This document shows positions 2,812 through 8,530 of a DNA stretch of 8,530 bases, piece by piece. Source of the stretch: a virus (lineage: Duplodnaviria > Heunggongvirae > Uroviricota > Caudoviricetes); IMG/VR virus record IMGVR_UViG_2690316166_000017, one strand, 5' to 3'. The first letter of the stretch is position 1. Each line of letters starts with the position of its first letter. The translations under genes were made by a program, and so were the position numbers. The notes beneath the pieces are model-generated. The model was not told where the DNA came from. It saw only the letters and a program-made list of their open reading frames with translations, and ran no database searches.

Positions 2812-3238
2812 TATCTGGAATAACGAAGCACGCACGCTGAAAAACTGGCATCACGACACGGGGAAATACGGGCGAACCATCACCGGGTGGGATGAGGATA
2901 AAAACAATATCCGCACGTTTTACCGGGATGACATCGACCGTTTTCTGGAAATACGCACCCGGCGCATCAACCAGGACAGCACCAGGCGCGTCTCCATGTT
3001 CGTAAAACTGCGCACCGCCCGCTACCTGAAAGCCCGTGCAGATGCTTCCGGTGTGACGGTGGGTTACAGCGGCGTGGCCGCACGTATTGCACGCGTTCAT
3101 CAGTTCGGTGAGCGCGATCAGGTTGCGCCGGGCATTTTCACCGATTACCCGGTACGTGAGCTGCTGGGTATCAGCCAGGCAGATGAGCGCCTGATTTATA
3201 ACACGGTGCTGGGCCGGATTGCGGAGGCTGTACGATGA
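2812..3238 (+). CDS. Phage tail completion / virion morphogenesis protein (P2 gpS-like); 5' end hidden in masked block, so start is unknown
   Basis: Open frame (frame 2) of 142 visible codons ending at TGA 3236-3238, which overlaps the ATG of the gpV-like gene (ATGA), i.e. the position P2 gene S occupies directly upstream of V. The C-terminal motif ...HQFGERDQVAPGIFTDYPVRELLGIS... resembles, from memory, the conserved HQFG / R-x-F-L-G-(L/I)-S region of the phage virion morphogenesis family. There is no in-frame ATG near the visible 5' edge, so the start is within or at the edge of the masked block. Family assignment is from memory, not a search. Confidence 0.5.
3223..3227 (+). promoter_or_regulatory. 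Shine-Dalgarno (GGAGG) for gpV-like gene
   Basis: GGAGG lies 7 nt upstream of the ATG at 3235. Confidence 0.6.
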
Positions 3239-3876
3239 GCGCAGAACTCATGCGACTGCTGAGCAATATCATCCGCACCGGGATCATCTCTGAAGTTGAT
3301 GAGGAATCCTGGTGCGTGCGCGTTCGCAGCGGCGAACTGGAAACAGGCTGGCTGCGCTGGAACACCACGCGCGCGGGAGACTTCAACGTGTGGTTTCCGC
3401 CATCACCAGGCGAACAGGTGGCAATTGCCTGCATCGGCGGCAACCCGGAAACCGCCATGATAATCNNNNNNNNNNNNNNNNNNNNNNNNNNNNNNNNNNN
3501 NNNNNNNNNNNNNNNNNNNNNNNNNGGCAGCCTGTGGAGTGATGCCATTCCGGCACCCGGCAAAAGCCTGAAAGAAATCGTGGTCAGCGCGCCGGACGGC
3601 GCGGTGTTCCGCTACGACGCGGACGCAGGCGCACTGAGCGCAAGCGGCATGAAAACGGCCACTTTGCAGGCATCCATCAGCGTGACACTGAACACGCCTG
3701 TCGTGGAATGCACAGACCTTCTGAGAACAGCGACGCTTGACGTCACAAAAGGGGGAACGATGAGCGGCAATATCACGCACAGCGGCGGCGATTTCACCTC
3801 AAACGGCATCACAGTGCATACGCATAAGCACGGTGGCGTTAAAGGTGGCAGCGATTCGACAGGAGGCCCGCAGTGA
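3235..3876 (+). CDS. V: Baseplate central spike / baseplate assembly protein V (P2 gpV-like, gp5/VgrG-type spike)
   Basis: 213-codon ORF, ATG 3235 to TGA 3874-3876, with codons 3466-3525 masked in frame. N-terminal ...LLSNIIRTGIISEVD... and C-terminal ...KGGTMSGNITHSGGDFTSNGITVHTHKHGG... align with the P2 gpV sequence as I recall it (NMIRTGIIVETD...; QKGGTMRGNIEHTGGELSSNGKVLHTHKH). HxH motif near the C-terminus. SD GGAGG upstream; start overlaps the upstream stop. Confidence 0.9.
   Translation: MSAELMRLLSNIIRTGIISEVDEESWCVRVRSGELETGWLRWNTTRAGDFNVWFPPSPGEQVAIACIGGNPETAMIIXXXXXXXXXXXXXXXXXXXXGSLWSDAIPAPGKSLKEIVVSAPDGAVFRYDADAGALSASGMKTATLQASISVTLNTPVVECTDLLRTATLDVTKGGTMSGNITHSGGDFTSNGITVHTHKHGGVKGGSDSTGGPQ
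3861..3866 (+). promoter_or_regulatory. Shine-Dalgarno (AGGAGG) for gpW-like gene
   Basis: Perfect AGGAGG lies 6 nt upstream of the GTG start at 3873, inside the 3' end of the V coding sequence. Confidence 0.65.
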
Positions 3877-4223
3877 CAACCCGCTACACAGGAATGAACC
3901 CGGACGGGACGGGAAACCTGAACGATATGGCGCACCTGAAACAGTCAGTCAGGGACATCCTGACCACCCCGCTGGCAAGCCGGGTTATGCGACGGGAATA
4001 TGGCAGCCTTGTGCCTGATTTGATTGACGAACCCATGAATAACACCACGCGTCTGCAATGCATGAGTGCTACCGTGATTGCACTGACACGATGGGAACCA
4101 CGCATTGCCCTGAACGCCATCGACGTTGTCTGGAAGGCAGGAGGCCACGCCGGGGTGACGCTGTCGGGCACTGTCATGCAGACCATGCAGAATGTTGAAT
4201 TAACCATCACGCTGAGGGAGTAA
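3873..4223 (+). CDS. W: Baseplate wedge protein W (P2 gpW / T4 gp25-like, GPW_gp25 family)
   Basis: 116-codon ORF with a GTG start at 3873 that overlaps the V stop (GTGA), ending at TAA 4221-4223. MTTRYTGMN...RVMRREYGS...TRWEPRI... matches the P2 gpW pattern as recalled (MTARYLGMN...RVMRRDYGS...KWEPRV). Size and position between V and J are as in P2. Confidence 0.9.
   Translation: MTTRYTGMNPDGTGNLNDMAHLKQSVRDILTTPLASRVMRREYGSLVPDLIDEPMNNTTRLQCMSATVIALTRWEPRIALNAIDVVWKAGGHAGVTLSGTVMQTMQNVELTITLRE
4214..4220 (+). promoter_or_regulatory. Shine-Dalgarno (GAGGGAG) for gpJ-like gene
   Basis: GAGGGAG lies 6 nt upstream of the ATG at 4227, overlapping the end of W. Confidence 0.55.
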
Positions 4224-4226
4224 ATC

Positions 4227-5231
4227 ATGCCTGCCGTTGACCTTTCCCAGTTACCGGAACCCGCCATCATCGCGGAGCCTGACTTTGAGGCAATTCTGGC
4301 TGACACAAAGGCCATGATGATTGCAGCTTATCCCGCCGAACAGCGTGAAGTCGTCTCCGCCGCACTGGAACTGGAATCGGAACCCCTGAACGTTATCGCT
4401 CAAACCATGTCGTTTCGTGAAATGCTGTTACGCCAGCGGGTCAATGAGGCCGCACGCGCCTGCATGTTGAGCCACAGCGCCGGAACAGACCTGGACAACC
4501 TCGCGGGCAATATGAACACAAAGCGCCTGGTTATCACTCCGGCAACGGATACCACCGACGTGGTGATGGAGAACGACACCTCGCTGAGACTGCGGGCGCA
4601 GCGGGCGTATGACGGCCTGAGTGTTGCAGGCCCGTCAGGCGCATACGAGTATTTTGCCCGCAGCGCCAGCGGTCTGGTGCGCGATGCGCGGGCCATCAGT
4701 CCGTCTCCGGCAAATGTGACGGTTTCCATCCTGTCCACTGAGGGCGACGGCACAGCAACGGAGGCGTTGCTTAATACCGTTCGCGCCGTTCTGAATGCAG
4801 AGGATACCCGCCCGGTGNNNNNNNNNNNNNNNNNNNNNNNNNNNNNNNNNNNNNNNNNNNNNNNNNNNNNNNNNNNNNNNNNNNNNNNNNNNNNNNNNNN
4901 NNNNNNNNNNNNNNNNNNNNNNNNNNNNNNNNNNNNNNNNNNNNNNNNNNNNNNNNNNNNNNNNNNNNNNNNNNNNNNNNNNNNNNNNNNNNNNNNNNNN
5001 NNNNNNNNNNNNNNNNNNNNNNNNNNNNNNNNNNNNNNNNNNNNNNNNNNNNNNNNNNNNNNNNNNNNNNNNNNNNNNNNNNNNNNNNNNNNNNNNNNNN
5101 NNNNNNNNNNNNNNNNNNNNNNNNNNNNNNNNNNNNNNNNNNNNNNNNNNNNNNNNNNNNNNNNNNNNNNNNNNNNNNNNNNNNNNNNNNNNNNNNNNNN
5201 NNNNNNNNNNNNNNNNNNNNNNNNNNNNNNN
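4227..5231 (+). CDS. J: Baseplate protein J (P2 gpJ-like); 3' end lies inside masked block 4818-5336, end coordinate is an estimate
   Basis: ATG at 4227, 3 nt after the W stop. The visible 197 codons (MPAVDLSQLPEPAIIAEPDFEAILADTKA...ESEPL...RQRVNEAARA...GLSVAG..GAYEYF...SPSPANVTVSILS...EDTRPV) align along their length with P2 gpJ as recalled (MPIIDLNQLPAPDVVEELDFESILAERKA...RQRVNEAARAVML...GLSVAGSVGAYQYH...SPSPACVTISVLS...EDVRPV). The true stop is hidden; the end is inferred from where the gpI-like gene must start and could be up to ~100 nt earlier. The track's continuation to 5441 is a masking artefact. Confidence 0.8.
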
Positions 5232-5791
5232 NNNNNNNNNNNNNNNNNNNNNNNNNNNNNNNNNNNNNNNNNNNNNNNNNNNNNNNNNNNNNNNNNNNNN
5301 NNNNNNNNNNNNNNNNNNNNNNNNNNNNNNNNNNNNGGTCGCCGGACACCTGCCCGGTGCATCTGCTGCCTTATCTCGCCTGGGCGTTTTCCGTTGACCG
5401 CTGGGATCGCAACTGGCCGGAAGAGACAAAGCGACAGGTGATTCGTGATGCATGGCTGATACACCGACACAAAGGAACCATCAGCGCCCTGCGACGGGCC
5501 ATTGAGCCGCTGGGATACCTCATTCGCGTGTCTGAGTGGTGGGAGTTCAACGGCGAACCCGGAACATTCAAGATTGATGTTGGCACGCTGGACAGTGGCG
5601 TGACGGAGGAAATGTATCTGGAAATGGAGCGGTTGATTGCTGATGCCCGCCCGGTCAGCCGCCACATNNNNNNNNNNNNNNNNNNNNNNCACATGACAGG
5701 GCTGAATATCATTCAGGAGATTCAGGGAGATATTTTCGCGGCAGCAGCAACTTACGACGGTGAAGTCATTACCATTTATCCGGACGATTAA
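5228..5791 (+). CDS. I: Baseplate / tail formation protein I (P2 gpI-like); 5' end inside masked block, start coordinate is an estimate
   Basis: Frame-2 reading from 5339, SPDTCPVHLLPYLAWAFSVDRWDRNWPEETKRQVIRDAWLIHRHKGTISALRRAIEPLGYLIRVSEWWE...MERLIADARPVSRH...GLNI...YDGEVITIYPDD, aligns with P2 gpI as recalled (NPDTCPANLLPWLAWAFSVDRWDEKWPEATKRAVIRDAYFIHCHKGTIGAIRRVVEPLGYLINVTEWWE...). Stop TAA at 5789-5791. About 37 N-terminal codons are hidden; the start is estimated from the alignment. A 22-nt masked block (5668-5689) lies inside the gene, in frame. Confidence 0.8.
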   Translation, partial: XXXXXXXXXXXXXXXXXXXXXXXXXXXXXXXXXXXXXSPDTCPVHLLPYLAWAFSVDRWDRNWPEETKRQVIRDAWLIHRHKGTISALRRAIEPLGYLIRVSEWWEFNGEPGTFKIDVGTLDSGVTEEMYLEMERLIADARPVSRHXXXXXXXXHMTGLNIIQEIQGDIFAAAATYDGEVITIYPDD

Positions 5792-5793
5792 GC

Positions 5794-8328
5794 ATGAGTA
5801 CCACAACACGAAAATTTAAAACCATTATCACCGATACGGGTGCAAAAAAATTAGCGCAGGCAACCGCGCCAGATGGGAAACCTGTCCGCCTGACACATAT
5901 GGCCGTGGGTGACGGCGGCGGTACTTTACCCACGCCAGACAGTAAGCAGACCCGTCTTGTGCATGAGGTGTGGCGACATACCGTTAATCGCGTCACCCTG
6001 GACGCAACACATCAGAACCACATTATTGCGGAGCTGGTTATTCCTCCTGAAACGGGCGNNNNNNNNNNNNNNNNNNNNNNNNNNNNNNNNNNNNNNNNNN
6101 NGTGTGTTTGATGAGCACGGCGATTTGATCGCGGTAGGCAATACTGCCGAAAGTTACAAGCCAACCGTTGCCGAAGGATCCGGACGTGCACAAACATNNN
6201 NNNNNNNNNNNNNNNNNNNNNNNNNNNNNNNNNNNNNNNNNNNNNNNNNNNNNNNNNNNNNNNNNNNNNNNNNNNNNNNNNNNNNNNNNNNNNNNNNNNN
6301 NNNNNNNNNNNNNNNNNNNNNNNNNNNNNNNNNNNNNNNNNNNNNNNNNNNNNNNNNNNNNNNNNNNNNNNNNNNNNNNNNNNNNNNNNNNNNNNNNNNN
6401 NNNNNNNNNNNNNNNNNNNNNNNNNNNNNNNNNNNNNNNNNNNNNNNGGCAGAGGATATTGCATCCGCCGTGGCGCTTGAGGATGCAAGTACGACGAAAA
6501 AGGGGATAGTACAGCTCAGCAGTGCGACCAACAGCACTNNNNNNNNNNNNNNNNNNNNNNNNNNNNNNNNNNNNNNNNNNNNNNNNNNNNNNNNNNNNNN
6601 NNNNNNNNNNNNNNNNNNNNNNNNNNNNNNNNNNNNNNNNNNNNNNNNNNNNNNNNNNNNNNNNNNNNNNNNNNNNNNNNNNNNNNNNNNNNNNNNNNNN
6701 NNNNNNNNNNNNNNNNNNNNNNNNNNNNNNNNNNNNNNNNNNNNNNNNNNNNNNNNNNNNNNNNNNNNNNNNNNNNNNNNNNNNNNNNNNNNNNNACCAA
6801 CAGCACGTCTGAAACGCTGGCAGCGACACCAAAAGCCGTTAAGGCAGTAATGGATGAAACGAACAAGAAAGCCCCATTAAACAGCCCGGCACTGACCGGA
6901 ACGCCAACAACACCAACTGCGCGACAGGGAACGAATAATACCCAAATCGCAAGCACGGCTTTCGTTATGGCTGCGATTGCCGCACTTGTAGACTCTTCGC
7001 CTGATGCACTGAACACACTGAACGAGCTGGCGGCGGCGCTGGGCAACGACCCGAATTTTGCGACCACCATGACTAACGCGCTTGCGGGTAAGCAACCGAA
7101 AGATGCCACTCTGACGGCGCTGGCGGGGCTTGCTACTGCGGCAGACAGGTTTCCGTATTTTACGGGGAATGATGTCGNNNNNNNNNNNNNNNNNNNNNNN
7201 NNNNNNNNNNNNNNNNNNNNNNNNNNNNNNNNNNNNNNNNNNNNNNNNNNNNNNNNNNNNNNNNNNNNNNNNNNNNNNNNNNNNNNNNNNNNNNNNNNNN
7301 NNNNNNNNNNNNNNNNNNNNNNNNNNNNNNNNNNNNNNNNNNNNNNNNNNNNNNNNNNNNNNNNNNNNNNNNNNNNNNNNNNNNNNNNNNNNNNNNNNNN
7401 NNNNNNNNNNNNNNNNNNNNNNNNNNNNNNNNNNNNNNNNNNNNNNNNNNNNNNNNNNNNNNNNNNNNNNNNNNNNNNNNNNNNNNNNNNNNNNNNNNNN
7501 NNNNNNNNNNNNNNNNNNNNNNNNNNNNNNNNNNNNNNNNNNNNNNNNNNNNNNNNNNNNNNNNNNNNTAACCATCCTTACTGGATGTGCAAAGGCTCAT
7601 GGGCTTATGCAAATAATAAGGTCATTACAGATACAGGTTGCGGAAATATTTGTCTTGCAGGTGCTGTGGTGGAAGTTATTGGCACTCGCGGCGCAATGAC
7701 CATACGCGTTACCACGCCGAGCACGTCCAGCGGTGGCGGAATTACTAACGCTCAATTCACTTATATTAATCATGGTGATGCTTACGCTCCTGGCTGGCGA
7801 CGAGACTACAACACGAAAAATCAACAACCTGCATTTGCTTTAGGGCAAACAGGAAGCACTGTCGGAAATGATAAAGCTGTTGGCTGGAACTGGAATAGCG
7901 GGGTCTATAACGCAAACATTGGTGGCGCATCGACATTAATCCTCCACTTCAATATGAATACGGGGAGCTGCCCTGCTGTACAGTTCCGCGTGAATTACAG
8001 GAACGGCGGTATTTTTTATCGTTCAGCGCGTGATGGTTATGGCTTTGAAGCTGACTGGTCAGAGTTTTACACCACAACCCGCAAACCCTCTGCGGGAGAT
8101 GTTGGTGCATATACGCAGGCAGAATGTAACTCAAGGTTTATTACAGGTATTCGCCTTGGTGGTCTGTTATCTGTTCAGACATGGAATGGTCCCGGATGGT
8201 CTGACAGGTCAGGTTATGTTGTTACCGGTTCCGTTAACTCAAACAGAGATGAACTAATTGATACAACTCAGGCAAGGCCAATTCAGTATTGCATTAATGG
8301 GACGTGGTATAACGCGGGGAGTATTTAA
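5794..8328 (+). CDS. H: Tail fibre protein (P2 gpH-like N-terminus and shoulder, lambdoid Stf-like repeat region, divergent C-terminal receptor-binding domain); interrupted by four masked blocks, with apparent frame changes at two of them
   Basis: ATG at 5794, 2 nt after the I stop. The N-terminus (...[26 protein letters not shown]...[13 protein letters not shown]) matches P2 gpH as recalled ([27 protein letters not shown]...[14 protein letters not shown]). Later segments ([22 protein letters not shown]; [20 protein letters not shown]; [44 protein letters not shown]) match the P2 H / E. coli side-tail-fibre shoulder. The C-terminal ...[15 protein letters not shown] resembles the P2/Mu fibre tip (IQKYINGTWYN). 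Stop TAA at 8326-8328. The reading frame is 1 for 5794-6058, 2 for 6102-6538 and 1 for 6796-8328, so the continuous-ORF interpretation assumes the hidden blocks restore frame. Confidence 0.8.
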
Positions 8329-8330
8329 CG

Positions 8331-8530
8331 ATGATGCACTTAAAAAACATTTCTGCTGGTAATCCTGAAACAAAAGAGCAATACCAGCTAACGAAACAAT
8401 TTAACATCAAATGGCTTTATACAGAGGATGGGAAAAACTGGTATGAGGAACAAAAGAACTTTCAGCCTGATACGTTGAAAATGGTCTATGACCACAACGG
8501 CGTTATTATTTGTATTGAAAAGGATGTTTC
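8331..8530 (+). CDS. Tail fibre assembly chaperone (Mu gpU / P2 gpG / Tfa family), 5' part only; runs off the window end
   Basis: ATG at 8331, 2 nt after the H stop, with GGGGAG ~10 nt upstream. Translation [66 protein letters not shown] has the N-terminal signature of Mu U / P2 G-type chaperones as I recall them ([19 protein letters not shown]...W...[15 protein letters not shown]). It is not in the ORF track because no stop falls inside the window. Confidence 0.8.

Follow-up and report, generated by a model that had tools for sequence, protein, structure and literature searches.

Does the tail fibre gene of this module change reading frame twice, as a literal reading of its runs of N implies, or are those runs simply of the wrong length? 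The window (the whole stretch of DNA analysed, 8,530 nt, IMG/VR record IMGVR_UViG_2690316166_000017) contains eight such runs (83-2811, 3466-3525, 4818-5336, 5668-5689, 6059-6101, 6198-6447, 6539-6795 and 7178-7568); together they cover 4,271 nt, and the other 4,259 bases are visible. These show the late tail module of a P2-like prophage, recognised from the annotation of the E. coli relative L001, from gene calls for the relatives L002-L011 and from Pfam matches, with its parts in the order head-completion gene start, S end, V, W, J, I, H and fibre chaperone gene start (Table 1); the order J, I, H, chaperone is supported by the L001 annotation, the L002-L011 gene calls and 100% DNA identity. 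Our answer, drawn from comparison of sequences, is that the double frame change very probably reflects N runs longer than the DNA they replaced, and that H would really be one continuous frame in a P2-family tail module.

Reading frames of the fibre gene

Translation of 5794-8328 bore out the frame assignments of the original prediction (1 to 2 to 1), with frame 2 covering 6104-6538. Frame 1 runs as fibre sequence from the ATG at 5794 to 6058, ending ...VIPPETG; carried past the 43-N run, it reads CV and meets two successive stops (6109-6111 and 6112-6114), with a further stop at 6478-6480. Frame 2 from 6104 gives 31 aa, then 250 N, then 30 aa, to 6538, and frame 1 restarts at 6796 and reaches the stop at 8326-8328. 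Direct reading likewise agreed with the prediction that the N runs 3466-3525, 5668-5689, 6198-6447 and 7178-7568 preserve the frame of their genes.

Table 1 Features of the fibre region and adjoining genes in the window
Feature	Positions	Strand	Observations
V	3235-3876		Baseplate gene
60-N run in V	3466-3525	.	Natural gap 0 (L003 9653 directly followed by 9654; L001 and IMG/VR loci likewise)
W	3873-4223		Sole fully visible gene
J	from 4227		Baseplate gene
I	to 5791		Baseplate gene
22-N run in I, CACAT either side (5663-5667, 5690-5694)	5668-5689	.	Flanks overlap by 5 nt in relatives
H (P2-type tail fibre), apparent span including four N runs	5794-8328	+	ATG 5794, stop 8326-8328; PF12571, PF03406, gp37_C
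H N-terminal piece, frame 1	5794-6058	+	100% identical to L003 11777-12041; PF12571 profile 3-84
N run, 43 nt	6059-6101	.	Relatives: 21 nt (GATTCTGGATCCGGGAAATTG); excess +22
H piece, window frame 2	6102-6197	+	100% identical to L003 12063-12158; PF12571 profile 93-123
N run, 250 nt	6198-6447	.	Stands for 173 nt (L003 12159-12331) jointly with the 91-nt piece and the 257-N run
91-nt stf-type piece, lambdoid side-tail-fibre, 30 aa	6448-6538	+	100% identical to stf genes
N run, 257 nt, between copies of the 11-nt ACCAACAGCAC	6539-6795	.	Direct reading
H shaft piece, frame 1	6796-7177	+	100% identical to L003 12332-12713; PF03406
N run, 391 nt	7178-7568	.	Relatives: 274 nt; +117, frame kept
H C-terminal receptor-binding part, Mu S' / P1 Sv' type	7569-8328	+	100% identical to L003 12988 onwards
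Tail fibre assembly chaperone gene start, U' type, leaves window	8331-8530	+	PF02413 Caudo_TAP in relatives

The two pieces either side of the 43-N run belong to the same gene and have the same natural frame: 5794-6057 matches positions 3-84 of the PF12571 profile (E 2e-26) and 6104-6196 matches positions 93-123 (E 1e-6). Eight profile positions are missing between them, so 24 nt would be expected, against 46 nt between codon boundaries in the window, and the relatives have 21 nt at the run itself; the suspicion that 43 nt is too long for about eight residues was thus well founded. Further along, the PF03406 fibre repeat matches 6796-7176 (E 1e-11). The frame-1 stops at 6109-6114 and 6478-6480 would accordingly be out-of-frame readings of normal sequence.

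Spacings in near-identical relatives

Relatives were found by exact-protein look-up with gpW, which gave ten chromosomal loci, and IMG/VR contigs were also compared. All visible bases except 6448-6538 (4,168 of 4,259) are 100% identical to L003, L009 and L014; L008 differs from the same bases at 1-2 positions, and the parts that the window shares with L002, L004, L005 and L018 are also 100% identical. In the identical relatives the distances that the window hides are, in order, 2646, 0, 401, -5, 21, 173 and 274 nt. The corresponding window distances are 2729, 60, 519, 22, 43, 598 (250 N, the 91-nt piece and 257 N) and 391 nt, an excess of +83, +60, +118, +27, +22, +425 and +117; every run is over-long and none is short. 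Modulo 3 these excesses are 2, 0, 1, 0, 1, 2 and 0, residues that look random, as expected for arbitrary lengths, and four of the six in-gene runs keep frame (P ~0.1).

H of L003 (11777-13747) is a single ORF of 656 aa, and among the 100%-identical relatives the product is 656 or 678 aa. The L003 product reads ...PPETG-GFWIREIG-VFDEHG... and ...GRAQT-FRTILTV... uninterrupted at the places where the window changes frame. An excess of 22 nt at 6059-6101 produces a +1 shift, from frame 1 to frame 2, and an excess of 425 nt across 6198-6795 (+2 modulo 3) cancels it and returns the reading to frame 1. The two compensating frameshifts proposed under 1:1 masking, whether by indels, decay or recoding, are not supported, as relatives read identical visible H bases in one frame, and the alternative offered alongside them, that the two mask lengths are not true lengths, matches what the relatives hold (21 and 173 nt, against 43 and 598 nt in the window).

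The natural spacings are conserved well beyond the closest relatives. Those of 0, -5 and 21 nt are also kept in more distant relatives at 91-97% identity, and the 21-nt spacing at 6059-6101 is kept in every relative examined, at 91-100% identity. Twelve IMG/VR contigs carry the natural 21-nt junction, and no IMG/VR contig has the 6059-6101 flanks spaced 22-52 nt apart. The window's own spacings across the V run, the 6198-6447 run and the 6059-6101 run had no match in IMG/VR. An exact 71-mer (5690-5760) was absent from the GTDB genome set and JGI metagenomes and occurred in only three IMG/VR contigs, all ordinary relatives.

At every run the flanks are contiguous or otherwise spaced in finished genomes, and at three of them the adjacent pieces abut (3466-3525) or overlap (by 5 nt at 5668-5689 and by 11 homologous nt at 6539-6795). 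The V flanks of the 60-N run are directly contiguous in all relatives, as at the L003 junction in Table 1. CACAT occurs both before and after the 22-N run in I and in a single copy in the relatives, and the 11-nt ACCAACAGCAC occurs at 6527-6537 and again at 6796-6806, either side of the 257 N. Such abutting and overlapping flanks mean that the window is not L003-like sequence in which intervals were overwritten by N; separately assembled pieces joined with padding can give this pattern. Taken literally, the 60-N run would add 20 codons to V, and none are present there in L001 (~96% identical) or in any closer relative. Tandem duplication, a transposon scar and an epitope tag were considered as sources of the 27- and 60-nt excesses and rejected: a simple duplication would not give these flanks, and no common size links the seven excesses.

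Several relatives have disrupted genes of their own. Many tail and head genes of L006 and L034 (NCTC assemblies) are split by 1-nt indels that look like long-read errors. One such product, P0001 (98 aa), was considered as a parallel because its frame shifts in the same 21-nt stretch that lies under 6059-6101, but the cause is a 1-nt insertion in L034, an extra G in TTCTGGATCC (NCTC assemblies). At L010 11777-14590, H is interrupted by IS1, with InsA and InsB readable in frames 3 and 2, and no H gene is called there because of this interruption.

The stf-type piece and the invertible fibre end

The original prediction took all of 6102-6538 as homologous fibre sequence. Its last part, 6448-6538, is indeed fibre-like, but it is not P2-type H sequence and matches lambdoid stf: it is identical at 91 of 91 or 90 of 91 positions to stf in many E. 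coli genomes, and its homologue lies in frame within the Stf of L012 (1176 aa). It is absent from all ten gpW-matched chromosomal relatives (L002-L011), and none of 5,426 complete E. coli genomes holds 6102-6197 and 6448-6538 within ~600 nt of each other. An exact 56-mer of the piece was found in nine IMG/VR contigs, and an H N-terminus of P2 type is present in none of them (0/9). In every one of the nine, the last 11 nt of the 91-nt piece are already the start of the homologue of 6796 onwards; the two are thus continuous, and the 257 N between them in the window have no natural counterpart. Judged by these junctions, the piece is most simply read as the stf-type upstream neighbour of a module common to stf and H.

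The receptor-binding end of H is also shared across phage groups. Window positions 7569-8530 are 95-97% identical to the S'-U' block of Mu, D108, SfMu and P7, and in L002, L005, L007 and L010 this block lies inverted downstream (~14700-16450), beside an invertase gene with Resolvase and HTH_7 domains. A crossover inverted repeat is present in L005 (12773-12837 and 15817-15881), and the left crossover repeat would fall under the N run at 7178-7568. The arrangement is a putative Gin/Cin-type host-range switch in a P2-like prophage, with the block in either orientation among the relatives. The invertible fibre segment of L003 and L008 also holds two copies of an IS3-family element (HTH_Tnp_1 and rve; 14220-18336), and the chaperone gene of both is shortened to 137 aa.

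The natural DNA under three of the runs (L003 10946-11346, 12042-12062 and 12714-12987) is 98-100% identical among divergent P2-like prophages, whereas the visible neighbours of these stretches are only 93-97% identical among the same prophages; hidden stretches more conserved than their neighbours are as expected for unresolved repeats. An independent draft contig in the same database offers a second example of an N join in such a gene. In L023 (IMGVR_UViG_2695420708_000013), a single N at position 10309 joins P2-type H to stf-type alanine-rich sequence, with H in frame 1 up to ...KDATL and the stf-type sequence and 91-nt piece in frame 3; the scaffold join in this public viral contig appears to be chimeric.

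On the favoured reading, the run at 6059-6101 would be 22 nt too long and would move the downstream sequence by +1, and the stretch 6198-6795 (two N runs and the 91-nt stf fragment) would be 425 nt too long and would restore the frame. The N runs may be joins of separately assembled pieces, either scaffold gaps of estimated size or other padding unfaithful to length. The breaks in the fibre region may stem from repeated modules and an invertible segment common to P2 H, Mu/P1 S and lambdoid Stf, sequence of a kind at which gaps would be typical of short-read assemblers, and a small stf contig was perhaps set beside the shared module. The underlying arrangement is already familiar, a P2-type fibre gene H with a Mu/P1-type invertible end, and the frame change would not reflect biology.

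Competing readings and known systems

Two observations count against over-long N runs as the explanation: the excesses are all positive, whereas noisy gap estimates should go both ways, and the net frame is kept in V (+60), I (+27) and H (+564), which has a chance of ~1/27, a figure calculated post hoc. Preservation of net frame in these three genes fits slightly better with masks that are faithful to length. On that alternative, which we regard as decidedly unlikely, the source DNA would truly have 22 nt inserted within PF12571 and ~425 extra nt that include the stf segment, through assembly or sequencing errors or true decay, and H would be a frameshifted pseudogene whose shifts cancel. Decay of the fibre module is known among relatives, as in the IS1 inside H of L010, the IS3-family elements that L003 and L008 carry in their invertible segment, and the 1-nt indels that split tail genes in L006 and L034, and the protein collection holds short frameshifted H N-terminal fragments. 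However, these known events are IS insertions and 1-nt indels, not insertions of 22-118 nt. The net-frame point is outweighed because masks faithful to length need seven length changes (+22 to +425 nt), all of them insertions, with zero substitutions in 4,168 bases relative to L003 and L009; none of the seven occurs in any relative, and the extra length in V, J and I would fall at sites where no examined relative varies in length. No record exists of the predicted 105-aa product, in which ...CV follows 88 natural residues: exact-protein look-ups of the X-containing ORFs (V 213 aa, H N-terminal 105 aa and J 404 aa) returned none, and a protein search with H residues 1-88 returned only short fragments with other frameshifts, with no 100%-identical truncated fragment among them. 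We consider it very improbable that a real 22-nt insertion in the N-terminal fibre domain coexists with a ~425-nt stf-derived frame-restoring insertion and in-frame insertions in V and I. If this were true, the fibre and baseplate module would be heavily remodelled, and the fibre would be dead or dependent on two recoding events.

Recoding itself, in which a full-length fibre would arise by a +1 ribosomal shift near 6059-6101 and a return shift near 6539-6795, is barely conceivable; the frame pattern is all that speaks for it, and the same residues are encoded in one frame by all relatives. Read on the relatives' bases, the natural 21 nt with its flanks (CCT GAA ACG GGC GGA TTC TGG ATC CGG GAA ATT GGT GTG TTT) contains no in-phase X XXY YYZ heptamer. 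A two-frame arrangement is not conserved in the relatives, the intact ones being single-frame with the 21-nt spacing, and we know of no precedent in tail fibre genes for two compensating shifts in a folded N-terminal domain. A different possibility is that the 91-nt piece is genuine, H being a mosaic formed by recombination with an stf-type gene, and that excess length (+22 and +269) is confined to the two flagged runs. Such a reading departs from the favoured explanation in one respect, the membership of the 91-nt piece in H, and we think it fairly unlikely. Removing the +22 and +269 excess gives one ORF of 747 codons; the piece is in frame with 6104-6197 across the 250 N and runs on, in natural genes, into the homologue of 6796; and the module is common to P2, Mu, P1 and lambdoid fibre genes, and engineered P2-P1(S') fusions are functional (PMC9942202). 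Agreement of frame across the 250 N is, however, a one-in-three chance, the piece occurs in none of the 100%-identical relatives, and it is never found near the H N-terminal piece in the complete E. coli genomes (~600 nt) or together with a P2-type H N-terminus in the nine IMG/VR contigs that carry it.

If the N runs are indeed over-long, their lengths here are no guide to reading frame, gene length or indels. We caution that other findings resting on the lengths of this window's N runs need the same check.

Programmed frameshifts are known in phage tail genes, namely lambda G/GT and P2 E/E+E', each a single -1 shift in tail assembly chaperone genes that is conserved among relatives. The window resembles these in that two frames are apparently used in a tail-related gene; it differs in that its relatives use one frame and the shift here corresponds to an excess of N-run length. 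Lambdoid Stf (stfR-type 'prophage tail fiber N-terminal domain-containing protein') is matched by 6448-6538, which encodes 30 in-frame Stf residues, but the window has no Stf N-terminal domain and no alanine-rich region, and the neighbours of the piece are P2-type, not lambdoid. The L023 draft scaffold likewise has an N join between P2-type H and stf-type sequence at which the frame changes; its join is one N long, in contrast to the window's runs of 22 to 2729 N, which may be assembly gaps.

The closest likeness is to the P2 gpH-type fibre of Peduovirus-type prophages such as L003, with which the window shares PF12571, PF03406, the J-I-H-chaperone order and 100% identity in visible H DNA, and from which it differs in N runs longer by 22, 425 (including the 91-nt piece) and 117 nt and in the extra stf-type piece. 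At the distal end, the S'-U' block, together with the invertase gene and crossover repeats of the relatives, is as in Mu (S'/U', Gin) and P1/P7 (Sv'/U', Cin); unlike in those modules, the block is fused here to a P2-type constant part, and the window does not reach the invertase or the alternative segment.
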